Numbered from the stretch's first letter, positions 6,573 to 42,087 are shown. The stretch: DNA of 42,087 nt from a virus (IMGVR_UViG_2565956712_000007), one strand, 5' to 3'. Notes: generated by a model from the letters alone, not told the origin. Program-made: numbers and translations.

Positions 6573-6589
6573 ATTACCTTTCAGGTAAT
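6573..6589. promoter_or_regulatory. Operator-like site ATTACC-TTTCA-GGTAAT
   Basis: Perfect 6-bp inverted half-sites, 5-bp spacer; member of a 14-copy family. Confidence 0.6.
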
Positions 6590-6627
6590 TTGCAAAACGT
6601 GCTGGATAGCAAACAAATTATTTGATA

Positions 6628-6643
6628 CTGTATAAATATACAG
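6628..6643. promoter_or_regulatory. LexA (SOS) box CTGTATAAATATACAG
   Basis: CTGT-N8-ACAG with AT-rich centre, flanked tA...tt, 22 nt upstream of the ATG at 6665. Confidence 0.65.
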
Positions 6644-6664
6644 TTATTGCATGGAGAAGATAAG

Positions 6665-6922
6665 ATGCAGCAGTATCACTATCCACTGGAAGACGGATTT
6701 ACCGAAAGGATTCACACGCCGGGAGGCGTCAGGTCACTGGTGGAGGGATCGCACTTGATGAAATTACTCCGGGATCTCGATAAGGATGGATTTAATGTCG
6801 ATGGCCCACTTGCCGAACTGACTGCACTGATTAACTACGTCACCAGCTCACAGATGTCTATGCGGGATCTGCAAACACATCTCGACTATTGTGCCGAACA
6901 ATTACGAAAACAAACCCGGTAA
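6665..6922 (+). CDS. Small SOS-controlled protein (85 aa) carrying the antirepressor C-terminal module; candidate antirepressor
   Basis: GGAG RBS; C-terminal half aligns with the last 77 aa of both Ant proteins (LM.LL..L..DG..V.G..AELT...Y......RD.QTH..Y). Confidence 0.6.
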   Translation: MQQYHYPLEDGFTERIHTPGGVRSLVEGSHLMKLLRDLDKDGFNVDGPLAELTALINYVTSSQMSMRDLQTHLDYCAEQLRKQTR

Positions 6923-6929
6923 ATTTAAA

Positions 6930-6945
6930 GGCCGCAAGAGCGGCC
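6930..6945. terminator. Hairpin terminator GGCCGC-AAGA-GCGGCC between convergent genes
   Basis: Perfect 6-bp GC stem, 4-nt loop, T-rich flanks. Confidence 0.6.
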
Positions 6946-7673
6946 TATCGTTTCGCTTTGTGCTCATCCCAGCACGTTTTGCACCATGCCATTAAGCCGT
7001 CCGCATTTTGATTATTAGGGTAAAAGCTGGTTCGTTTTCTGCGGACATTACAAATTGGGCACCACTTCATATGGCGTGTATTCTTTGGGCCATCGAGACA
7101 CCTTGCACACCATTTAGTCAATCCATCTGGATTTTTTGACGATTTCCTGAATTTTTCATATGGAAGGTTTATTCTGCATCGCAAGCACTGCTTGCTACCA
7201 CTTGAAACTCTGTTAGCTGATTCTTCTTTTGGCGGCGATACAGAAGGTATTCTTGCTGGCTCTGATATTGCCTGAGGTGCTTTTTTAGATGACTGAGACG
7301 ATATGTCATCACCAGGGAATCTTCCATGATATGCCGGACGCGTTGACACTCCAGGTGGAATCTCAGCTGTAAACGGCTTTGGCTGAATCAGTTGCCTCTC
7401 TTTTGCTAACTCCTGCTGTTTATAATATGTCTGGATTACCGCACTATCATAAGCAGGAGGTGCGGAAATATTAGGCGCATTACCTCCAGTTTTTTGAAAC
7501 TGAGTAGAGGTGTGTTCTATCACCTGTGTACGATTAATCGTTATCTCCCCATCTTCGGTCTTTATCGTTTTGTTATGATTAACGACCGTACGATCAGAGA
7601 TCTTAGTCTTGTTCTGGTTGATAACGTAAATAATCACCGCAACCACACCAACAACTATCCAGAAAACTTCCAT
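6945..7673 (-). CDS. Membrane-anchored protein with duplicated Cys-rich (zinc-finger-like) C-terminal repeats; moron
   Basis: N-terminal TM helix; two C-x2-C ... W-C-x2-C repeats; operator-like site in its upstream region. Confidence 0.55.
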   Translation of the reverse strand: MEVFWIVVGVVAVIIYVINQNKTKISDRTVVNHNKTIKTEDGEITINRTQVIEHTSTQFQKTGGNAPNISAPPAYDSAVIQTYYKQQELAKERQLIQPKPFTAEIPPGVSTRPAYHGRFPGDDISSQSSKKAPQAISEPARIPSVSPPKEESANRVSSGSKQCLRCRINLPYEKFRKSSKNPDGLTKWCARCLDGPKNTRHMKWCPICNVRRKRTSFYPNNQNADGLMAWCKTCWDEHKAKR

Positions 7674-7692: not shown

Positions 7693-7709
7693 ATTACCTT
7701 AAAGGTAAT
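7693..7709. promoter_or_regulatory. Operator-like site ATTACC-TTAAA-GGTAAT
   Basis: Perfect inverted half-sites. Confidence 0.6.
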
Positions 7710-7785: not shown

Positions 7786-7802
7786 ATTACCTTTACGGTA
7801 AA
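7786..7802. promoter_or_regulatory. Operator-like site ATTACC-TTTAC-GGTAAA
   Basis: One mismatch to consensus; next to TTTACA -35-like hexamer. Confidence 0.5.
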
Positions 7803-7894
7803 TTTACATCGCACTCCTCTTGTGCCATAGTAATCGGGCACTGGCAAAATCCAGTGCCGGGATTGGCGTCCCGGATTACTACAGAGGCACATAT

Positions 7895-7915
7895 GCCGCA
7901 TAAGCGGTTTTTTTT
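7895..7915 (+). terminator. Intrinsic terminator in the ant leader
   Basis: Short GC stem GCCGC-ATAA-GCGG followed by T8. Confidence 0.5.
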
Positions 7916-8068
7916 ATGTGTAAAGCGCACCTATTCTATGGTGGGCTGTGTGGGGGCACCGAAAGGTGCGCCGGGTCCTTTGTAGCCGGTTACGCCAACC
8001 CTGCACAGTTCACCACCAACCGATTGGCGTCGGTAGTGGTGATTAACCTAACTACAAAGGTGATCACT

Positions 8069-8755
8069 ATGACTGCTAACGTAACCCCATCTGTTTTTCA
8101 TTTTGAATCAGAAGCAACCATTCGAGCCATTGTTATTGATGGAAATCCTTGGTTTGTTGCCAAAGACGTTATTAAAGCTCTTCAACTGACAAACCCCACT
8201 ATGTCAATAAAATCTCTTGATGATGATGAAAGGGCTAAATTTAACTTAGGCCGTCAAGGCGAAACCAATATTATCAACGAGTCAGGCCTCTACACACTGA
8301 TCCTCCGCTGCCGCGATGCGGTGACACCAGGCACTATCCCATACCGCTTTCGTAAATGGGTTACAGGTGAGGTTCTTCCTCAGATCCGCCGCACCGGAAG
8401 TTACATTAAAAACTCGCTCCCGCAAGAAGAACGCATAAAGATGGTTGCCGACCAGGTAGCCAACGCCACGGCGTCAGCAGTAATGCAGGCAATGAAGGTA
8501 GAGAACAAAACCTACAGCGCCCCACTGAAGCCCGGCTACCGCAGCCTGATTCATTCGCCGTCTGGTGTTCTCGGCCTGACAGAGAACTCACTGCTGATGA
8601 ATCTGCTGAACCAGTTACAGGACGACGGGCACGACGTATCGGGCGCGGCGGCGGAGCTGACCACCATGTTCTGCTACATCGTCGGTGTGAGCAAATGCCT
8701 GCGTGATATCCAGACCCACGCGGAGTACATCAACGACAAGGCAGGGTTCTTCTGA
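8069..8755 (+). CDS. Antirepressor, Bro-N-type N-terminal domain (Ant1)
   Basis: N-terminus FHFESEATIRAIVIDGNPWFVAKDV; RBS AAGGTGA; C-terminal 77 aa near-identical to Ant2. Track start 7916 is likely too far upstream. Confidence 0.8.
   Translation: MTANVTPSVFHFESEATIRAIVIDGNPWFVAKDVIKALQLTNPTMSIKSLDDDERAKFNLGRQGETNIINESGLYTLILRCRDAVTPGTIPYRFRKWVTGEVLPQIRRTGSYIKNSLPQEERIKMVADQVANATASAVMQAMKVENKTYSAPLKPGYRSLIHSPSGVLGLTENSLLMNLLNQLQDDGHDVSGAAAELTTMFCYIVGVSKCLRDIQTHAEYINDKAGFF
8522..8755 (+). repeat. Inverted repeat arm A (234 bp, about 96% identical to arm B)
   Basis: Encodes C-terminal 77 aa of Ant1; about 10 mismatches to the reverse complement of 9618..9851. Confidence 0.85.
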
Positions 8756-8825
8756 CGGCGGCGGCGCAGGGACGTGCCTTTAAATAATTCTGTACAGATT
8801 GCAGACTGGGGGTGAATAGCGTACT

Positions 8826-8842
8826 ATTACCTTAAAGGTAAA
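8826..8842. promoter_or_regulatory. Operator-like site ATTACC-TTAAA-GGTAAA
   Basis: One mismatch; directly upstream of an AAGGAGG RBS. Confidence 0.55.
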
Positions 8843-8853
8843 GGAGGCGCGAT

Positions 8854-9021
8854 ATGACAGCGTTGAAAAATCGTACTCAGCACAATGAACAAGCCAAGCA
8901 ATGCTGGGATGTCATTGGAAAAGTTATGCTTGGCCGCGCAAGCAAAGAGCGCGACAAGGATATGGTTTACCAGACAGGAACATCTTTCAGCGACTTCAAG
9001 GCGGCATTTCGCTCCAAATAG
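8854..9021 (+). CDS. Small protein (55 aa), hypothetical; first gene of cassette
   Basis: AAGGAGG RBS 6 nt before ATG; not in ORF track (under 60 aa); opposite-strand track ORF 8827..9027 has no RBS. Confidence 0.5.
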   Translation: MTALKNRTQHNEQAKQCWDVIGKVMLGRASKERDKDMVYQTGTSFSDFKAAFRSK

Positions 9022-9041
9022 AAGCACATTAGGAGTTTGTC

Positions 9042-9482
9042 TTGAAGTTTAACATTAGAATATCTAATAGTTTTCTAAATGGGGAAAGCAACACCCCTTT
9101 CGCTGTAGACGGACCTTTCCTTACTGACGATGAAATAAAAATCATACAAAGGTTTTTAGAAGATGTTGCCAATGGAAGGGCGCTTGTTGGAAAAAACAAG
9201 CCATCGTGGGTTAATGATAACCATGATAAAATTCCCGGCTCAGACAATTATGAGCAAGAGAATTATTGGCATTATCATTGTGGGCCAACATGGTATCCAA
9301 ACACATTTAAGAATTATACCATTAACTTAAATTTCAACCCTGGCGGAATGCATTCTAATGAATGCATTCATTATGCAAAAAATGATAATGAAATTGTCGT
9401 TGTTGGATTTTCAAGAGAACACATACCTTTCCTTTCATCAGATGGAAACGACAATCCGCTTTTTTATGATGAAGAAGAATAG
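9042..9482 (+). CDS. AT-rich hypothetical protein (146 aa, TTG start); moron, function unknown
   Basis: AGGAG RBS 6 nt before TTG; visibly AT-rich versus flanks; strong terminator after stop. Confidence 0.5.
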   Translation: MKFNIRISNSFLNGESNTPFAVDGPFLTDDEIKIIQRFLEDVANGRALVGKNKPSWVNDNHDKIPGSDNYEQENYWHYHCGPTWYPNTFKNYTINLNFNPGGMHSNECIHYAKNDNEIVVVGFSREHIPFLSSDGNDNPLFYDEEE

Positions 9483-9502
9483 CCCGCGGCGCGGGCTTTT
9501 TT
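9482..9502 (+). terminator. Intrinsic terminator GCCCGC-GGC-GCGGGC + T6
   Basis: Perfect GC stem then TTTTTT. Confidence 0.8.
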
Positions 9503-9540
9503 GTGTCTGCGGATTCCCACCCAGGCGGCGGTGGCATTCG

Positions 9541-9566
9541 TTAAAAACAAGGCCGCGAAAGCGGCC
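9541..9566 (-). terminator. Intrinsic terminator downstream of ant2
   Basis: GGCCGC-GAAA-GCGGCC hairpin followed by a U-run on the minus strand. Confidence 0.7.
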
Positions 9567-9567
9567 T

Positions 9568-9579
9568 GTGACATGTCAC
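9568..9579. repeat. 12-bp perfect palindrome GTGACATGTCAC (copy 1)
   Basis: Exact 12-mer, adjacent to the terminator hairpin. Confidence 0.9.
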
Positions 9580-9617
9580 GATAGTTCAGTTTTGCACATC
9601 CCTGTGCCGCCGTTCTG

Positions 9618-9851
9618 TCAGAAGAACCCTGCCTTGTCGTTGATGTACTCCGCGTGCGTCTGGATATCACGCAGGCATTTGCTCACACCAACGATGTAGC
9701 AGAACATGGTTGTCAGCTCCGCCGCCGCGCCCGATACATCATGCCCGTCTTCCTGTAACTGGTTCAGCAGATTCATCAGCAGTGAGTGCTCCGTCAGGCC
9801 GAGAACACCAGACGGAGAATGAATCAGGCTGCGGTAGCCGGGCTTCAGCGG
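9618..9851 (-). repeat. Inverted repeat arm B (234 bp)
   Basis: Encodes C-terminal 77 aa of Ant2; reverse complement matches 8522..8755. Confidence 0.85.
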
Positions 9852-10556
9852 ATAACCATAACATTTTGTCTGTGTTTTAATTGCCTCACGAAGCGCATCT
9901 AACATCTTGACTGCCACTTCATCATTCTCTGATGCAGATCCAGCAGGGAGATACTCCCCTTCAAGCGGAACCCGAGCAACAAGAGACAACGCTTCGGCGA
10001 ATTGATCTTCATCAATTTCTTTGTACGAACAGCCAAAATGAGATTTCAGTGACGACCACATGGTGATCATCGCCTTAGCCTGTTTTTCTTTTGGCAGAGA
10101 CTGACCGCGACTCATGACGAGTTGTTTAATGGCTTCCTGCTGTTCAGTGGTGATTTTACCCGGCAACGCCTTTTTAGCTTTGCGTGGGTTAACTACATGG
10201 CCTTTAGTCCAGTAATCGTAGAGCACATCGTCACACTCTTCCTGATACTGGATTACCTTGTCGCGGATTTCAGGGCGTACTTTGTTTGGACTGATGCTGT
10301 TCAACCAAGCTGCCAATTTTCGTAAAGCCATACAAATCATGGCTTGCACCCCACCGGCAGAAGGTATGGTGATTTCCACCATACCCTTCGAGAAGCGTTG
10401 AGAAATCTTCTTATGTTGAGATTTCCAGTCTAGCCCCATTCCCTCAACGATAGGTTTCATTGGGGTATACGGTTCACCGTTGTGATTGACAACATAAAGC
10501 TCTGCGCCGTGGAATGGCACGTTGATAGTAGATACCGCTGTTGCTATACTCGTCAT
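9618..10556 (-). CDS. Antirepressor, P22 Ant-type N-terminal domain (Ant2)
   Basis: N-terminus VPFHGAELYVVNHNGEPYTPMKPIVEGMGLDW; downstream of arc-like gene as in P22 immI. Confidence 0.8.
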   Translation of the reverse strand: MTSIATAVSTINVPFHGAELYVVNHNGEPYTPMKPIVEGMGLDWKSQHKKISQRFSKGMVEITIPSAGGVQAMICMALRKLAAWLNSISPNKVRPEIRDKVIQYQEECDDVLYDYWTKGHVVNPRKAKKALPGKITTEQQEAIKQLVMSRGQSLPKEKQAKAMITMWSSLKSHFGCSYKEIDEDQFAEALSLVARVPLEGEYLPAGSASENDEVAVKMLDALREAIKTQTKCYGYPLKPGYRSLIHSPSGVLGLTEHSLLMNLLNQLQEDGHDVSGAAAELTTMFCYIVGVSKCLRDIQTHAEYINDKAGFF

Positions 10557-10628
10557 GTCGTTAATTCCTATACGTAGTTTTACGATACTGAAGCCCTGAC
10601 GGTCTGGCCACCGTTGGGCTTCGCTGTT

Positions 10629-10796
10629 TTATGCCACGCTATTCTTCTCACCAGTGAGTCCATACACTTTCCTCAGCTGATAGATAATCTCTGTATTGAA
10701 CTTTCGGCATTCTTTTTCGCCATTTCTTTCAATAGCTAACTTCACATCGTCCGGAAAACGAACTCGTCGTTGACACATCTCTTTTGCTTTTTGCAT
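10629..10796 (-). CDS. Arc-like ribbon-helix-helix repressor (56 aa)
   Basis: RVRFPDDVKLAIERNGEK..FNTEIIYQL resembles P22 Arc; AAGGAG RBS 7 nt before the ATG at 10796. Confidence 0.7.
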   Translation of the reverse strand: MQKAKEMCQRRVRFPDDVKLAIERNGEKECRKFNTEIIYQLRKVYGLTGEKNSVA

Positions 10797-10810
10797 TTCA
10801 TATCTCCTTA

Positions 10811-10825
10811 GCCCCACGGTGGGGC
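10811..10825. promoter_or_regulatory. 15-bp palindrome GCCCCAC-G-GTGGGGC, candidate Arc/Mnt operator
   Basis: Perfect 7-bp arms; between divergent arc-like and mnt-like genes, beside a TTGACA hexamer on the minus strand. Confidence 0.5.
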
Positions 10826-10916
10826 AAAACAATTGTCACACCGTGCGTCATTGATGTCAAGCACACGGTGAGGCATACTTCAATCATTGCAAGTAACTCA
10901 ATATTTGGTGAAGAAC

Positions 10917-11348
10917 ATGAGCAGAGAAGATCCACAACTAAGGATCAGACTTCCCGTTGAAGTAAAAGAAAAAATAGAAATTTCTGCAAAAGCCAATAAG
11001 CGATCAATGAACGCTGAAATAGTACAACGTCTTGACACCAGCTTTCTGAAAGATATTCATGAAGATGACGTAATTTCTGCTTATGAAGCAAAAATTATTG
11101 CAAACAATGCACGGCATGAAATATCAAATATTATTTTCAAAAGAACCTTTAATGAAATTAATAAGAAAATAACACTTGGACATACAAGTTTTTATATAAA
11201 CCTTAATGACCTTGAACTGGAATCACTTGCAGATAATGATTACCAGATCATCTTTGAAAAAACATTTAATAAGCTCAATGAACTAGGTTACATCATCTGT
11301 GAAAACTCATGGGATGCAGATGGTTTTGGAATTGAAATACCTGAATAG
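10917..11348 (+). CDS. Mnt-like RHH repressor fused to an AT-rich C-terminal extension
   Basis: N-terminus DPQLRIRLPVEVKEKIEISAKANKRSMNAEIVQRL matches P22 Mnt; about 60 aa longer than Mnt. Confidence 0.65.
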   Translation: MSREDPQLRIRLPVEVKEKIEISAKANKRSMNAEIVQRLDTSFLKDIHEDDVISAYEAKIIANNARHEISNIIFKRTFNEINKKITLGHTSFYINLNDLELESLADNDYQIIFEKTFNKLNELGYIICENSWDADGFGIEIPE

Positions 11349-11390
11349 GAAGAACAAAAGGCGTGTACATATTACACGTCTTTAATACAA

Positions 11391-12002
11391 TTGAAAAACG
11401 CCACATTACTGATGTATGTTACAACAAGGAGCGATATTTTGAAAACCATATCTATATTAAAGGTTGCATTAGGCGTCGCTATTATTTTGACTCTCTCAAT
11501 ATTGTTTTATTTTTACCACAAAAAAAATGCTATTGCTCTTGATGGTCACGCGGCAAACTCATTTTTCTCAGAGTACATAGTGCCGCTATCAGGAAGCGGT
11601 ATAACAAATAAATATACTGACTATGACATCAAATATGGAATTGATGATGGGGAGACTATTGTATTACATGTAATCATTAAAAACCTAATGACAGTAAATA
11701 AAAATACAGACTTCAACGATAAAAATACAATACATCACAACAACAGCAAAACATTAATTTCTTATAGTAGCAACATCTATACGGATAAATACCTAAAATA
11801 CATCTCAGAAGATACAATAAAAGCAACCAGCGAAAAGTTAAAAAACATATATTGTGCATCCGGCAGTTTTCACAAATTATCGCCGCAGGAGCGTTTATTC
11901 TACGAAGCAAGAAAACAACGTAAGTCAATAATATTACATTATTATGCTGATTCAGGGGAGTCACTCATATTTAATATTGGGGTTTCCCCTGAATCATGCT
12001 AA
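11391..12002 (+). CDS. AT-rich membrane-anchored hypothetical protein; candidate superinfection-exclusion moron
   Basis: N-terminal TM helix (ILKVALGVAIILTLSILFYFY); between ejection-protein gene and mnt-like gene; start uncertain. Confidence 0.45.
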   Translation: MKNATLLMYVTTRSDILKTISILKVALGVAIILTLSILFYFYHKKNAIALDGHAANSFFSEYIVPLSGSGITNKYTDYDIKYGIDDGETIVLHVIIKNLMTVNKNTDFNDKNTIHHNNSKTLISYSSNIYTDKYLKYISEDTIKATSEKLKNIYCASGSFHKLSPQERLFYEARKQRKSIILHYYADSGESLIFNIGVSPESC

Positions 12003-27385: not shown

Positions 27386-27462
27386 GTGGCATTAGCTCAG
27401 TTGGACAGAGCAACCGCCTTCTAAGCGGTTGGTCGCAGGTTCGAATCCTGCATGCCACGCCA
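27386..27462 (+). tRNA. tRNA-Arg (anticodon UCU)
   Basis: Hand-folded cloverleaf: 7-bp acceptor GTGGCAT/ATGCCAC, D-stem GCTC/GAGC, anticodon stem ACCGC/GCGGT with loop CTTCTAA, T-arm GCAGG-TTCGAAT-CCTGC, discriminator G, encoded CCA. Confidence 0.85.
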
Positions 27463-35887: not shown

Positions 35888-35904
35888 ATTACCCTTAAGG
35901 TGCT
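35888..35904. promoter_or_regulatory. Operator-like site ATTACC-CTTAA-GGTGCT (degenerate right half)
   Basis: Upstream of gene 35608..35877. Confidence 0.4.
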
Positions 35905-36343: not shown

Positions 36344-36928
36344 ATGAAAAGTATCCAGGACGTCCGCAGGCAAAATCTCAACGACTTGATCGACCGTGAA
36401 TTCAATGGTGTTCAGACGCGGATGGCTGAAAAACTTGGAACTCAGGCAAATCTGGTAAACCGCTGGGCTCTTGGTAAGAAGGTTATCGGCGATCAGGTTG
36501 CGCGAAAAATTGAAGCTGCCGCCAATAAACCCCGTAACTGGCTTGATATCGATCGCTCGCTTTCTCAGGAAGGTTTTCAGCCTGTCGGCCCAAGCGACAT
36601 TGGCCAGCTGGCGGCTCACAACCTGGAACGCTGGATGAGCGAAAGCCGCGACCTTTCAACACAGGGAAAACTTCACCGCGCATCCGGCGTCGCCCAGGTG
36701 ACAATCAGCCGCCTGTTAAACAATGAGGTCAGCGTTTCCATTTCCACCCTGGAGAATGTTGCATCCGCATTCGGGCGTCACGGCTATGAATTACTGATTC
36801 ACCCGCACGACCCTGCGACCATCAACTATGATCGCTCGCGCTACGCATTGTTACCCGAAACCGAGAAAGCAAAGATCGAAAGTTACATTGAATTTGTCAT
36901 CAACCAGAACGAAAAAAACAAACAATAA
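36344..36928 (+). CDS. Prophage repressor, cI-position, HTH (XRE-type) without recognisable S24 autocleavage domain
   Basis: HTH motif TRMAEKLGTQANLVNRWALGKK plus second HTH-like segment; flanked by OR-like and OL-like operator clusters. Confidence 0.7.
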   Translation: MKSIQDVRRQNLNDLIDREFNGVQTRMAEKLGTQANLVNRWALGKKVIGDQVARKIEAAANKPRNWLDIDRSLSQEGFQPVGPSDIGQLAAHNLERWMSESRDLSTQGKLHRASGVAQVTISRLLNNEVSVSISTLENVASAFGRHGYELLIHPHDPATINYDRSRYALLPETEKAKIESYIEFVINQNEKNKQ

Positions 36929-37236: not shown

Positions 37237-37536
37237 ATGAACGTTAATCAGCAGAAAAATCTTCAAAAAATCATGCTGGCATTCGACAAGGACTACCGTC
37301 TGTCAGAACAGCTATATGACCGACAAGTTGAACTGATTGAGAGTATCCGGCTTCATCAACTGGCATCAACTTTCGACGTTGTAACAGTTAAAGGCGTTCG
37401 CCAGGAAGTACTGGAGGCCGCTAAAGACAGCCCTGAGTTCGAAGAACTAATGGATGCCTACCGGCGCGAGGCAATGGCAATTATCGCCCGCTGGGATCTG
37501 GCTGATCAGCTTGATGGGCAGAGGGACGCGGCATGA
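37237..37536 (+). CDS. Hypothetical early protein (99 aa)
   Basis: GGAGGG RBS 7 nt before ATG. Confidence 0.55.
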   Translation: MNVNQQKNLQKIMLAFDKDYRLSEQLYDRQVELIESIRLHQLASTFDVVTVKGVRQEVLEAAKDSPEFEELMDAYRREAMAIIARWDLADQLDGQRDAA

Positions 37537-38354
37537 AACCGGGAATTTATTTCGACATCAGCAACGAAGACTACCACGCCGGTGACGGCGTGAGTAAGTC
37601 GCAACTGGACATGGTTGCCAAGAATCCGGCGCTTCTTAAATGGGTTCAGGCAGCACCAGAAGACGAAGAGAAAAAGTCTGCACTGGATATGGGAACCGCA
37701 TTGCACTGTCTGCTTCTGGAGCCTGGAGAGTTCGACAAACGCTTCATTGTTTCACCGAAATTCGATCGTCGGACGAAACAAGGTAAAGCTGACGAAGAGG
37801 AATTTCTTCGTGATGTGGCGGATATGGGGATTACGGTACTTGATGCCGAGCAGTGGCGGAAACTGGAGCTGATGCGTGATAGCGCAATGGCTCACCCGGC
37901 GGCACGCTGGATGCTGGAAGCACCTGGTTACTGCGAAGCATCAATGTACTGGAACGATGAAGAGACGGGGGAGTTGTGCCGAATTCGTCCAGACAAATGG
38001 CTGAACGAGCACAACGTGATCGTCGACGTGAAAAAGGTTGCAGATATGGACCGTTTTGCACGCCACATCGAGGAATTCCGCTACCACGTGCAGGACGCAA
38101 TGTACCGCGAAGGCGCAATGAGGGTTACTGGTCAGCCGCATGGTTTTTTCTTTCTTGCCGTGAGCGAAAGCATTGATTGTGGTCGGTATCCGGTACGCGT
38201 GTTCGAGCTGGATGCGCAGGATGTCGATGCCGGGCACGCTCTGTTCCGCCGGGATCTGAATACCTATCACGAATGCCGCATCAATGATGAATGGGGCGGT
38301 GTGGAAATCATTAAACGCCCTGAGTGGGCACGCAAACAGGATATGTACATATGA
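37533..38354 (+). CDS. PD-(D/E)XK exonuclease (recombination exonuclease partner)
   Basis: Motif IRPDKW...VIVDVKKV; ATGA-coupled to the annealing-protein gene. Confidence 0.7.
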   Translation: MKPGIYFDISNEDYHAGDGVSKSQLDMVAKNPALLKWVQAAPEDEEKKSALDMGTALHCLLLEPGEFDKRFIVSPKFDRRTKQGKADEEEFLRDVADMGITVLDAEQWRKLELMRDSAMAHPAARWMLEAPGYCEASMYWNDEETGELCRIRPDKWLNEHNVIVDVKKVADMDRFARHIEEFRYHVQDAMYREGAMRVTGQPHGFFFLAVSESIDCGRYPVRVFELDAQDVDAGHALFRRDLNTYHECRINDEWGGVEIIKRPEWARKQDMYI

Positions 38355-39292
38355 GCAACGACATCGCAAACATCAACGCACCAGTAGACACAGCAATCGC
38401 TGGAACTGCTGCAACTATTTTCAGCCCAGACGGCTTGAACCAACTGATGAAATTCGCCGAGGTAATGGCGCAAAGCCGCGTAACGGTACCGGCGCACCTC
38501 GCCGGGAAACCAGCTGATTGCATGGCCGTGGCAATGCAGGCTGCGCAGTGGGGAATGAACCCGTTTGCCGTGGCTCAGAAAACCCATGTTGTGAACGGCA
38601 CGCTAGGTTATGAAGCCCAATTAGTAAACGCAGTTATCTCAACGATGTCGCCAACAAAAGATCGCATCAACTACGAGTGGTTCGGGCCGTGGGAACGCGT
38701 GATCGGTAAGTTTGTTGAGAAAACATCCAAAAACGGCAATCCATATATCGCACCAGGCTGGACTCTAAAAGACGAAGAAGGCTGCGGTGTTCGCGTATGG
38801 GCAACCATGAAGGGCGAGGATCAACCTCGAGTGCTTGAGTTAATGCTGTCTCAAGCACAGGTAAGAAACTCCACACTTTGGGCCAGTGATCCGAAACAAC
38901 AACTCGCATACCTTGCGACAAAACGCTGGTCTCGCCTGCACTGTCCTGACGTAATCATGGGCGTCTACACCCCAGACGAATTACAGGAAACGGCACCGCG
39001 CGTTGAGCGAGACATTACTCCGCAAACGACCACTGCTGCGGGAATGAACAGTCTGATCAACGCTAAACCAGCGAAAAAGCCTGATGAGCAAACGCGTAAA
39101 TCGGACAGCCGTGATCCAGAAGAAATGCTGATGGCCTTTACCAGCGCAGCGATGAATTACAGCACTGTCTCCGAACTGGATAAGGCTTACAAATACATTG
39201 CACAAAAACTTTCAGATGATGACGAACTGCTGGCAAAAGCCACCGACGTTTACAGCGTTCGTCGGGAAGAATTAAACGAAACATCTATGTAA
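38351..39292 (+). CDS. RecT/Red-beta family single-strand annealing protein
   Basis: QWGMNPF...PKQQLAYLATKRWSRL pattern; paired with exonuclease. Confidence 0.75.
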   Translation: MSNDIANINAPVDTAIAGTAATIFSPDGLNQLMKFAEVMAQSRVTVPAHLAGKPADCMAVAMQAAQWGMNPFAVAQKTHVVNGTLGYEAQLVNAVISTMSPTKDRINYEWFGPWERVIGKFVEKTSKNGNPYIAPGWTLKDEEGCGVRVWATMKGEDQPRVLELMLSQAQVRNSTLWASDPKQQLAYLATKRWSRLHCPDVIMGVYTPDELQETAPRVERDITPQTTTAAGMNSLINAKPAKKPDEQTRKSDSRDPEEMLMAFTSAAMNYSTVSELDKAYKYIAQKLSDDDELLAKATDVYSVRREELNETSM

Positions 39293-39699: not shown

Positions 39700-39999
39700 G
39701 TGAGAAAGTTAAGCCGACTTGAAAAATATCACATGAACAAGGTTTCAATGCGCAGTCCGTCAAAGATTGTCGCCGTTACTCCTGCGGCGATAGAGATCGA
39801 AAAACGCGCGATTGAAAGAGAGAAAAAAGGGCAGTTCCGCATTGCCGCTCACCTTTGGCTTCAGTGTATGGATGTTGCTTCTGGTGATGTTGAGCGTGCA
39901 AGGATCGCGGTTCGCAGGGACCAATGTATCACAAAAGGTAACGGCCTTCGCCGTGGCGACTATAGCGGCATAGGATGTTGTGGGGTGGTTTATGACTAA
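39700..39999 (+). CDS. Hypothetical protein
   Basis: ORF only; start uncertain. Confidence 0.4.
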   Translation: MRKLSRLEKYHMNKVSMRSPSKIVAVTPAAIEIEKRAIEREKKGQFRIAAHLWLQCMDVASGDVERARIAVRRDQCITKGNGLRRGDYSGIGCCGVVYD

Positions 40000-40642
40000 G
40001 AAATACACACTAATCTATGCAGATCCACCCTGGGTATACCGGGACAAAGCCGCAGATGGTAATCGCGGTGCCGGTTTTAAATATCCGGTTATGAGTGTGC
40101 TGGATATCTGCCGCCTTCCTGTGTGGGATTTGGCCGATGAAAACTGTCTGTTGGCCATGTGGTGGGTGCCAACACAACCACTCGAAGCACTAAAAGTTGT
40201 TGAGGCCTGGGGATTCCGTCTGATGACCATGAAGGGATTCACGTGGATAAAATGTGGTAGTCGACAACCAGATAAACTGGTTATGGGTATGGGTCACATG
40301 ACTCGCGCCAATAGTGAAGATTGCCTGTTTGCAGTAAAGGGAAAACTACCTACGCGCATTAATGCAGGGATCGTTCAGTCATTTACCGCACCGCGGCTTG
40401 AGCATTCAAGAAAACCAGATATCGTTCGTGAAAAACTTGTGCAATTGTTAGGCGATGTTTCTCGCATTGAACTGTTCGCCCGCCAGTCGTCTCATGGTTT
40501 CGATGTTTGGGGTAATCAGTGCGAAGACCCGGCAGTGCAACTACACCCTGGATACGCGTTGGATATTGCCAGATTAACAAATGCATTCAGCAATGCTCCG
40601 CTGTCACCAACAGACAACCAGGGGCGGGAGCGTGCAGCATGA
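39992..40642 (+). CDS. MT-A70 family DNA N6-adenine methyltransferase
   Basis: Catalytic DPPW motif in LIYADPPWVY; start ATG 39992 or GTG 39980. Confidence 0.8.
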   Translation: MTKKYTLIYADPPWVYRDKAADGNRGAGFKYPVMSVLDICRLPVWDLADENCLLAMWWVPTQPLEALKVVEAWGFRLMTMKGFTWIKCGSRQPDKLVMGMGHMTRANSEDCLFAVKGKLPTRINAGIVQSFTAPRLEHSRKPDIVREKLVQLLGDVSRIELFARQSSHGFDVWGNQCEDPAVQLHPGYALDIARLTNAFSNAPLSPTDNQGRERAA

Positions 40643-40836: not shown

Positions 40837-42087
40837 TTATTCCCCCGCCATCCACTTCTCAAACTTCGACGGGGAGAACGGAATCAGATCCGTATGCTCC
40901 CCGTTAATCCAGGAATCAATCATATCGGCCCACTGCTGCAACATGTAGGCGCGCTGTCTGGCGTATTCCGCTTTGTTATATACGGCGCGCACACCTTTCT
41001 GCTCATGTGCCAGAGCCTTTTCAATCCAGTCTGAAGGATAACCAGCCTCATGCAACAACGTACTGGCTGTACGGCGCATATCGTGTACGGTGAAATCCTG
41101 AATATGCTCACCATCTTCATTTATTATTTTCACCGTTCTGTCGATCAGAGAGTTCAGCGCGGCATTAGATAATGGCTTCCGGAAATTGTAACGACCAGGA
41201 ACCAGATATTCACTTCCACCAGCGCACATCTGCAACCCGACCAATATATCCTGAGCCTGTTTAGGCAGGTAAATAACATGCGCCCGGCTTCCCTTCATGC
41301 GGTCTGAAGGAATTGTCCATGTCCATTTTTTAAAATCTATTTCATCCCACGTTGCATTGGTGAATTCGCCCTTACGAACCATAGTGATAAGCACCAGTTT
41401 TAAAGCCATTTTCATAGTGCCCATAGCACCAATGGCATCCAACGTGCGGAAGAACAGGCCAATTTCTTCTGGTGTCAGTGTTCGCTCTCGTGGTTTAAAT
41501 ATGGCGATAGACGAAGGCTTAATGTCAGCCGCAGGATTAAACAAACCATGACCACGGTCATTGGCGTGACGGTATACGCTGCTGATGATCTCCCTGGCCT
41601 GCACTGCTGTTGCCCGGCCACCGCGTTCGACAATCCGGTCACACAAATCACGAACCATCGATGTGGTAATTTCAGCCATCATTTTGTTGCCAAGAACCGG
41701 AAGTATGTCACGGTCGATCACTGCCTGCTTCATTGCGCGGGTACTTTCAGCCAGGATGACGTGTTTCATATAACTGTCGGTATGTACCGCAAACGTTTCG
41801 GCACCACGAATCTTTTTGATACCGTCACGTTTAGCCGCAGCCGGTGACTGGCCTGCTTTAAGCAGCTTCTTTGCAGCAATCAGTTCTTCCCGCGCTTCTG
41901 CCAGGCTGATACCGTCACGCCCATACTGCCCGATTACCAGTGTTTCGCGGCGACCGTTGATACGGTAGTCATAACGAAATGAGACCGTGCCTGACGTAAG
42001 CACAGCTACATACAGCCCGTCACGATCGGAGACCTTGTACAGTTTGTCCTGCGGCTTGAGGTTTTTTAATTTTGTATCGGTAAGCAC
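40837..42087 (-). CDS. Tyrosine integrase (P4-type); GTG start at window edge, may be truncated
   Basis: C-terminal catalytic residues HDMRRT...LAH...Y; N-terminal arm-binding-like domain. Confidence 0.9.
   Translation of the reverse strand: MLTDTKLKNLKPQDKLYKVSDRDGLYVAVLTSGTVSFRYDYRINGRRETLVIGQYGRDGISLAEAREELIAAKKLLKAGQSPAAAKRDGIKKIRGAETFAVHTDSYMKHVILAESTRAMKQAVIDRDILPVLGNKMMAEITTSMVRDLCDRIVERGGRATAVQAREIISSVYRHANDRGHGLFNPAADIKPSSIAIFKPRERTLTPEEIGLFFRTLDAIGAMGTMKMALKLVLITMVRKGEFTNATWDEIDFKKWTWTIPSDRMKGSRAHVIYLPKQAQDILVGLQMCAGGSEYLVPGRYNFRKPLSNAALNSLIDRTVKIINEDGEHIQDFTVHDMRRTASTLLHEAGYPSDWIEKALAHEQKGVRAVYNKAEYARQRAYMLQQWADMIDSWINGEHTDLIPFSPSKFEKWMAGE

Follow-up and report, generated by a model that had tools for sequence, protein, structure and literature searches.

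The 42,087-nucleotide (nt) stretch IMGVR_UViG_2565956712_000007, here called the window and numbered throughout from its first letter, is assigned by its sequence to a temperate podophage of the phiV10/TL-2011b-like (epsilon15-type) group. In this phage two antirepressor genes, ant1 and ant2, converge on a small gene cassette, and their 3' ends form a long inverted repeat that brackets the cassette (Table 1). The nearest relative, Escherichia phage TL-2011b, is 95.5% identical across 83% of the 5.1-kb region.

A repeat search of the window returned a single long inverted repeat, 8487-8756 against 9617-9886 (270 nt, 90% identity, 860 nt between the arms). When the arm cores were compared base by base, 224 of 234 positions were identical (95.7%), and in ungapped register the identity dropped sharply outside the cores, to 23% over the 87 nt upstream and 30% over the 44 nt downstream, which is the random level. 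The inverted repeat is real and far beyond chance. The first-pass annotation of this DNA had described near-identical inverted 234-bp repeats around 860 bp, formed by antirepressor 3' ends about 96% identical in otherwise unrelated genes, and both points were borne out, as the N-terminal parts of the two products belong to different Pfam families. The cores are the final 78 codons of ant1 and ant2 and differ at 10 nt, 8 of them silent and 2 amino-acid changing. If a 2-nt indel is allowed, the repeat runs on for about 20 nt of non-coding sequence beyond both stop codons (TGACGG--CGGCGGCGCAGGGACGTGC against TGACAGAACGGCGGCACAGGGATGTGC), and cross-matches with TL-2011b likewise extend past the stop codons.

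Table 1. Features of the antirepressor region and of the repressor and recombination genes of the window (aa, amino acids; RBS, ribosome-binding site; ORF, open reading frame; RHH, ribbon-helix-helix; E, expect value).
Feature	Position	Strand	Description
ant0 control region	6573-6645	+	ATTACC-N5-GGTAAT palindrome 6573-6589; perfect LexA box TACTGTATAAATATACAGT 6626-6645
ant0	6647-6922	+	91 aa, standalone, third diverged copy of the arm module
ant1 operon promoter palindromes	7693-7709, 7786-7802	+	second overlaps -10-like TATCAT
isrK-like small RNA	7838-7914	+	ant1 leader; Rfam above gathering threshold; terminator 7895-7908
C4 antisense RNA	7934-8020	+	ant1 leader; Rfam above gathering threshold, 79.5 bits
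ant1	8069-8755	+	228 aa, chimeric: Bro-N aa 18-104 and SPC32H-Ant-like C-terminal module aa 147-223
Left arm	8522-8777	+	coding core 8522-8755 (234 nt) and ~22-nt non-coding tail
Cassette promoter/operator region	8756-8853	+	palindrome ATTACCTTAAAGGTAAA 8826-8842, then RBS
ORF55	8854-9021	+	55 aa, phrog_8607
ORF146	9042-9482	+	146 aa, phrog_5954; invariant motifs GKNKPSW, WHYHCG, HxPF
Terminator 1	9481-9497		bidirectional hairpin; ends the cassette
Terminator 2	9567-9550	-	ends ant2
Right arm	9594-9851	-	coding core 9618-9851 and non-coding tail 9594-9617
ant2	9618-10556	-	312 aa, chimeric: P22_AR_N aa 12-121 and SPC32H-Ant-like module aa 231-307
sar antisense RNA	10558-10625	+	between ant2 and Arc-like gene; Rfam 45.2 bits against a gathering score of 43
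Arc-like gene	10629-10832	-	weak PHROG match only, 2e-5
Mnt-like RHH gene	10887-11348	+	divergent; Pfam Arc domain E = 1e-14
Rep	36344-36928	+	SPC32H-type repressor; 5D50_A E = 4e-42, full length
PDDEXK exonuclease	37533-38354	+	Pfam DUF3799 E = 1e-22
RecT	38324-39292	+	Pfam E = 2e-44

The arms encode a homolog of the 86-aa antirepressor Ant of phage SPC32H (Protein Data Bank (PDB) 5D50 chain E; E about 1e-13). Ant1, whose true start is the ATG at 8069 and not at 7916, matched Pfam Bro-N (E = 6e-20), 5D50_E in its C-terminal module (E = 1.9e-13) and PHROG anti-repressor families. Ant2 matched PF10547 (P22_AR_N, E = 2.5e-45) and, in its module, 5D50_E (E = 1.3e-13); the Pfam scan found no match to PF10548 (P22_AR_C) in ant2, and the SPC32H-Ant-like module stands there. 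We regard ant2 as a chimera because its first 222 aa, which are 82-90% identical to ant genes of P22-like prophages such as CUS-3, occur with other C-termini in P22-like prophages (CUS-3 and many IMG/VR contigs). The standalone ant0 matched 5D50_E (E = 2e-46) and phrog_450 (E = 4e-48), the latter being matched by ant0, ant1 and ant2 alike, and is 84.6% identical in amino acids to the annotated SPC32H ant, of which it is an ortholog at about 85-90%. At the DNA level its similarity to the arms is undetectable, and an arm DNA probe never matched ant0.

In the account of SPC32H given in PMC9638917, Ant binds the repressor Rep and breaks the Rep tetramer, through a mechanism involving an Ant tetramer and a Rep dimer. 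Because the C-termini of ant1 and ant2 match SPC32H Ant and the phage encodes an SPC32H-type Rep, we infer that the arms are the Rep-binding part of two chimeric antirepressors, and Rep is the presumed target of all three Ant modules. In the relative vB_EcoP_ZX5, overexpression of a Bro-N antirepressor shifts the phage towards lysis (PMC9782041).

The regions that precede the three copies differ. Only ant0 has a LexA box; none with at most one mismatch was found at the ant1 promoter, the ant2 promoter or the cassette, so ant1 and ant2 are expected to be under other controls. The ant1 leader, with its isrK-like RNA (Rfam score 76.8 bits) and C4 RNA, resembles P1-type immI control. Upstream of ant2 lie the sar RNA and the Arc-like and Mnt-like genes, and as judged from these RNAs and genes P1-style and P22-style immI circuits face each other in one epsilon15-like podophage.

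The palindrome ATTACC-N5-GGTAAT recurs in these regions. Where 0.06 would be expected by chance, its family gave 14 strand-wise matches in the window, at about 9 distinct sites (6573, 7693, 7786, 8826, 27048, 33942, 35888, 36985 and 37047), and the sites at 35888, 36985 and 37047 lie around rep. The same sequence is the most recurrent palindrome of SPC32H, where it flanks rep on both sides and adjoins the LexA box upstream of ant. From our own comparison with the SPC32H genome and the secondary description in PMC9638917, the palindrome is most likely the Rep operator. Further palindromes stand ahead of the exo/recT operon and of the replication genes and close to the tRNA region, and those outside the ant region would define a Rep regulon.

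One copy of the palindrome stands at the start of the cassette, which is a self-contained unit, as had been described; its palindrome, RBS, ORF55, ORF146 and terminator were all found, together with a minus-strand terminator for ant2. Read by eye, a weak sigma-70-like promoter may be present (TTGCAG-17-TACTAT), overlapped by the palindrome, and the -10/operator block TACTATTACCTTAAAGGTAAA copies the TATCATTACCTTTACGGTAAA of the ant1 promoter. The promoter/operator region is conserved across different cargos and the back-to-back terminators are conserved in relatives. Among 93 unique arm contexts the arm was followed by the operator region in 48, where the palindrome lies 65-85 nt (mostly 65-73) past the stop codon, and by a terminator hairpin in 31; no context had both.

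ORF146 is AT-rich (35-40% GC against 54-58% in the arms), and neither it nor ORF55 matched a Pfam, NCBIfam or PADLOC model. No credible Pfam family emerged for ORF146 or for any of its 27 homologs. A structure model of ORF146 (predicted local distance difference test (pLDDT) 92.5) was placed by fold search in the RelE/ParE superfamily, with only about 80 residues aligned, the protein being far larger than canonical RelE (146 against about 90 aa). ORF146 is on this model a putative toxin with a RelE/ParE-superfamily fold. Homologs of ORF146 from Erwinia and Proteus always have an ORF of 58-62 aa directly upstream; this partner shares 41% identity with ORF55 in Erwinia and 20% in Proteus, the latter a likeness in position and size only, with homology unconfirmed. 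Because a small upstream partner is kept with ORF146 homologs in unrelated contexts, ORF55 and ORF146 are predicted to be a toxin-antitoxin-like pair, with ORF55 as the putative antitoxin or regulator. A link of ORF146 to YafO was suspected from the layout of its G-K-D/N...HxH motifs and was not confirmed by any sequence tool.

Modules of the ORF55/ORF146 type were also seen outside phages. On the Erwinia persicina chromosome one interrupts a run of housekeeping genes, with accA on one side and an mtnA-like gene on the other. In Proteus terrae the module occurs on 2-5-kb contigs, probably small plasmids, together with a DnaD/HTH_36 replication-initiator-like gene.

The cargo differs between relatives. 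Compared with TL-2011b, the window is homologous across ant1, the arm and the operator as far as 8842, loses this homology over the ORFs and regains it at 9459/9506; TL-2011b carries a YafO-family cassette at the same place, analogous to ORF55/ORF146. Among 98 arm-cassette instances we counted at least 13 cargo types, including YafO-like toxins of two kinds, DUF4760, DUF2335, membrane-protein pairs, several unknowns and an empty slot, and E. coli genome annotations of the slot name YafO, DUF4760, TacA and hypotheticals. No cargo matched PADLOC defence models, and NCBIfam and PADLOC scans of the alternative cargos were uninformative. The slot is a hypervariable cargo hotspot in a conserved promoter/operator-terminator frame. 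Of 5,426 complete E. coli genomes, about 470 have arm-bearing loci, some at as many as 3 places. Most relatives have ant1 and the cassette only; in about 20% of loci there is a second convergent arm-bearing gene, which is of the P22 type (ant2), of another Bro-N type with its own isrK/C4 leader, or of the AntA/AntB type. The P22-type immI set is optional: with ant1 as anchor, 81 loci were examined, and about 7 of them had it. Comparison of related prophages, which the first-pass annotation had proposed, thus revealed variation in cassette content and, as described below, both orientations.

To determine whether the cassette occurs in both orientations, we searched the same 5,426 complete E. 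coli genomes with two junction probes, one for the flipped isomer (100 nt of ant2, then the arm, then the operator region) and one for the normal isomer (ant2, arm and terminator side). Of 36 genomes with an arm-bearing ant2, 33 carried the normal junction at full length and 3 (ETEC1749, SCU-387 and ETEC4085) the flipped one. ETEC4085 is 98.2% identical to the window over mnt-arc-sar-ant2 and has the same cargo, reading away from ant2. When its locus was flipped in silico it became collinear with that of E. coli UTAK-6 (100% coverage, 99.2% identity); compared directly, the two genomes have flanks 99.7-99.8% identical and a 1.5-kb segment that is inverted and ends inside the arms. UTAK-6 and ETEC4085 are a near-isogenic pair of opposite orientation. 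As mapped by single-nucleotide polymorphisms (SNPs), the DNA ahead of each arm goes with the gene, the ant2 arm's 3' end and tail go with the cassette side, and the interior of the arms is a conversion-like mosaic.

A second pair was found among phage sequences. Up to the arm, the IMG/VR contig L093 and TL-2011b are 99.97% identical; beyond it L093 carries the cassette exactly inverted, with the crossover between two arm SNPs at about arm positions 165-220. Over non-redundant double-arm loci with a visible backbone, 24 were normal, 4 flipped and 1, that of ETEC1749, both. Both orientations occur in nature with breakpoints within the arms, and the earlier proposal that recombination between the arms would invert the cassette has its natural isomers in the 3 flipped of 36 genomes and in the pairs UTAK-6/ETEC4085 and L093/TL-2011b. 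A junction test for Bro-N partners was rejected as non-discriminating, as Bro-type genes normally stand on both sides.

The polymorphism of the arms is reticulate. In relatives the same arm, at 95-99% identity, ends at least five different antirepressor N-terminal types. We collected 106 distinct arm alleles, in which all four gametes were present at 346 of 946 site pairs. No fixed differences separate ant2-type arms from the other (Bro-type) arms, and allele-frequency differentiation has its highest value, 0.55, at the 5' junction and stays at or below 0.38 over the remainder of the arm. Arm pairs within a genome differed at 8.5 positions and pairs between genomes at 9.0, which was not significant (permutation p = 0.096), although one locus, L009 (IMGVR_UViG_3300045988_096329), has two arms that are 100% identical. 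Because polymorphism is shared, four-gamete pairs abound and within-genome pairs are not closer, all arm copies, whatever gene they end, form one recombining allele pool. The 96% identity of the arms in the window is the standing diversity of that pool and gives no sign that an exchange took place unusually recently in this genome. Gene conversion or module exchange, as first proposed, therefore stands at the population level, as seen in the five N-terminal types and the four-gamete pairs, and the idea of a specifically recent conversion in this genome was dropped on the permutation test (p = 0.10).

No Hin-like serine invertase was found in the window (the best tblastn match of a Hin probe had E = 9.3), and domain scans of ORFs around the locus found no resolvase domain. 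The only site-specific recombinase found was a tyrosine integrase at 40837-42087, cut by the window end. The absence of an invertase gene noted earlier is upheld. The further view that inversion would be RecA-dependent and not site-specific holds for its second half, with neither an invertase nor a fixed site found; RecA dependence is not established, because the phage encodes its own exonuclease and RecT, which are candidate catalysts of arm-to-arm recombination.

We propose, with a probability of roughly three in four, that the shared antirepressor-module arms act as homologous-recombination substrates by which the cassette is flipped or exchanged. In this proposal one SPC32H-Ant-type module would stand in three copies under three controls, LexA for ant0, isrK/C4 for ant1 and Mnt/Arc/sar for ant2, and the convergence of ant1 and ant2 would make their shared 3' ends into the 234-bp inverted repeat. 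Between the arms would lie a transcription unit with a likely Rep operator, the 55-aa partner, the RelE-fold toxin-like ORF and terminators. General homologous recombination, by host RecA or phage Exo/RecT and with no invertase, would act on the arms: a crossover would flip the inter-arm segment, placing the cassette after the other ant gene and giving the facing ant gene a terminator, and non-crossover conversion would keep the arm copies in one allele pool. After a flip both ant genes would keep an intact module (2 conservative amino-acid changes), ant1 would gain a terminator, and the cassette would lie directly downstream of ant2 with no terminator between. The inter-arm segment would be functionally symmetric, with operator, cargo and terminator at one end and the terminator of the facing gene at the other. 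A flip would then be expected to shift read-through expression of the cargo from a Rep/C4-controlled to a Mnt/Arc/sar-controlled operon.

Several observations weigh against this proposal. The longest perfect runs shared by the arms of the window are 39, 37, 32 and 32 nt, and identical runs of only 32-39 nt predict a low recombination efficiency. The UTAK-6/ETEC4085 arm mosaic is patchy, with no single clean crossover, and several events or inter-phage exchange may lie behind it. Contig L093 ends in the next arm, and its inversion could be a short-read assembly path through the repeat; the flipped complete genomes were read from published assemblies. The two-cassette arrangement of ETEC1749 (L161, NZ_CP122712, 6101-8157), with ORF55/ORF146 behind ant2 and a YafO-like cassette behind a Bro-N ant, cannot arise by a simple flip. 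On the regulatory side, a consensus promoter scan did not call the cassette promoter (below threshold, weak -35), and we infer, by likeness to SPC32H, both that Rep occupies the palindrome and that the fused modules bind Rep. Finally, isomers were seen between genomes only, not within one culture, and each clonal group keeps to one orientation, as in the 2013C_xxxx and OkiPb016xx series, whose members are all normal. Because of this uniformity, flipping appears to be rare over the time in which strains diverge, and any physiological role is only hypothetical.

The data document occasional recombination rather than a demonstrated switch. In a stronger form of the proposal the arms would be built-in handles for a reversible flip-flop that provides recombinase-free phase variation or bet-hedging, and would also drive cargo exchange and the concerted evolution of an antirepressor hub with three inputs (SOS, RNA and Mnt/Arc). 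We consider this stronger form doubtful. If true, the flip-flop would change the timing of cargo-antirepressor co-expression and make lysogens heterogeneous (bet-hedging), and the locus would be a recombinase-free phase-variation device in a phage immunity region.

The opposite orientations might instead have arisen by whole-module exchange between co-infecting or co-resident phages and not by intramolecular inversion. Mosaicism at these loci is rampant: the ant N-terminal types number 5 or more and the cargos 13 or more, and ant2 is optional. The presence of several arm-bearing loci is frequent in E. coli. The two convergent cassettes of ETEC1749, the patchy arm mosaic and the inversion of a whole double-ant module between loci L042 and L050 would all be at home in such a scheme. 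However, a collinear double crossover cannot flip the cassette between the same ant genes, since the donor homologies are wrongly oriented, whereas each near-isogenic pair requires just one intramolecular event. We therefore hold module exchange to be unlikely as the source of the isomers; the arms would be the substrate either way, and the two schemes differ in topology, not in principle.

A more skeptical reading makes the repeat a by-product of a shared Rep-binding domain under purifying selection, with no recombinational role, and the flipped records assembly artefacts. The arms are indeed coding and differ by only 2 amino acids, within-genome pairs are no closer than between-genome pairs, orientation is uniform within clonal lineages, and L093 does end in the repeat. 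Yet it is the DNA itself that is alike, synonymous sites included (of 10 differences, 8 are silent), together with about 20 nt of non-coding sequence, and the protein paralog ant0 has no detectable DNA similarity to the arms. Polymorphisms are common to the gene classes, with differentiation highest at the 5' junction, and the flipped junction is present in three independent complete genomes, one of which has a near-isogenic partner of opposite orientation. This explanation is, in our view, quite improbable. As for a programmed site-specific invertible element of the Hin/Gin/Cin or shufflon type, with a dedicated recombinase and short sites in the arms, the geometry of inverted repeats around a promoter-bearing cassette between two genes would fit it, but we consider it very improbable, as the window has no serine invertase and only a tyrosine integrase at its far end, the breakpoints differ (about 165-220 of the arm in L093, a mosaic over the whole arm in ETEC4085), the arms are 234 bp of coding sequence with shared polymorphisms throughout, and orientation is stable within lineages.

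The proposal that the arms are substrates for general recombination can be set beside known systems. Plastid inverted-repeat isomers and herpesvirus segment inversion are flip-flops by general homologous recombination between inverted repeats, and the Mu G and P1 C segments are phage site-specific invertible segments. The present locus shares with these systems inverted repeats that bracket a segment found both ways, and an inversion that swaps the 3' ends of the flanking genes. It differs in that there is no dedicated invertase, the swapped ends are functionally equivalent, the isomers are known between genomes only, and the flip changes which antirepressor operon the cargo follows. Prophage moron and defence hotspots likewise have conserved flanks and many alternative small gene sets, whereas here the slot is bounded by antirepressor 3' ends and its genes, in contrast to classical morons, would be expected to stay off in the lysogen and to come on upon induction or infection, given the likely Rep operator. 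The YafO-family toxins and the RelE-fold protein with its small upstream partner recall type II RelE/YafO-like toxin-antitoxin cargo.

With SPC32H, a Salmonella epsilon15-like phage (PDB 5D50/5D4Z), the window shares the Rep family, the Ant module, the ATTACC-N5-GGTAAT palindromes around rep and ant, the LexA box on the standalone ant and the genome position beside the tailspike. SPC32H, however, has one standalone ant and no cassette, while in the window the module is also fused to two unrelated N-terminal domains under C4/isrK and Mnt/Arc/sar controls, and the fused copies form an inverted repeat around a cargo slot. The P22 immI region (mnt-arc-sar-ant) is matched by the P22_AR_N domain of ant2, the sar-family RNA, the Arc-like gene and the divergent Mnt-like RHH gene; the differences are that ant2 has the SPC32H-Ant-like module in place of P22_AR_C and that the host of the set is an epsilon15-type podophage with a non-lambdoid Rep, in which the immI set is optional. 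The P1/P7 immI system, where C4 controls icd-ant, also has a C4-family RNA in an antirepressor leader, but the gene in the window is a Bro-N/SPC32H-Ant chimera and not P1 Ant1/2, and an isrK-like RNA precedes C4. The elements are thus all of known kinds, namely modular antirepressors, an SPC32H Rep-Ant pair, immI circuits, toxin-antitoxin-like hotspots and inverted-repeat recombination. Their combination, with an antirepressor module as the inverted-repeat handle of a flippable and swappable cassette that follows a likely Rep operator and lies between antirepressor operons of different wiring, was not found in the literature collection that we searched.

Within a single prophage, one antirepressor module is here placed on different N-terminal domains and control circuits, and the lysis-lysogeny switch may accordingly integrate three inputs (SOS, RNA and Mnt/Arc). 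The shared module would double as homology for rearranging or swapping accessory genes without a dedicated recombinase. The slot holds mostly uncharacterised gene sets, including YafO-like toxins and an undescribed family with a predicted RelE fold. Because they lie behind the likely Rep operator, the slot genes are predicted to be on at induction, and on that account could serve in host shut-off, inter-phage competition or abortive functions. In practical terms, the repeat is a place where contigs are likely to break off or to be given the wrong orientation in assembly and annotation. The identity of the arm module, the third ant copy, the RNA and LexA circuits, the RelE-fold cargo and the optional ant2 were all absent from the first-pass annotation.

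Some further observations concern the neighbourhood of the arms. Loci L042 and L050 differ from each other in the orientation of the whole double-ant module relative to ant0. L009 (1711-6743) has three Bro-N ant genes, each behind an isrK/C4 leader. These cases suggest that the inverted isrK/C4 leaders serve as another pair of handles for recombination.

Between ant0 and the ant1 leader lies a 242-aa ORF (6945-7673, minus strand; phrog_6762), with an N-terminal membrane segment and C-terminal Cys-rich Zn-ribbon/HNH-EndoVII-like repeats that gave weak endonuclease VII and Lar-like matches. The spacing from ant0 to isrK is about 83 nt in some relatives and 900-1,200 nt in others, and because of this variation the ORF looks like an optional insertion. 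Its product, should it be a nuclease, could stimulate local recombination. The Mnt-like protein is unusually long (153 aa), with the RHH domain followed by an extension of about 100 aa (phrog_1388). After its gene comes a very AT-rich (26-37% GC) ORF of 203 aa, phrog_8033 (region 10887-12002), which looks like another accessory insertion by the immI set. Elsewhere in the window we noted a tRNA gene at 27386-27459 and an MT-A70 family DNA methyltransferase gene at 39980-40642.

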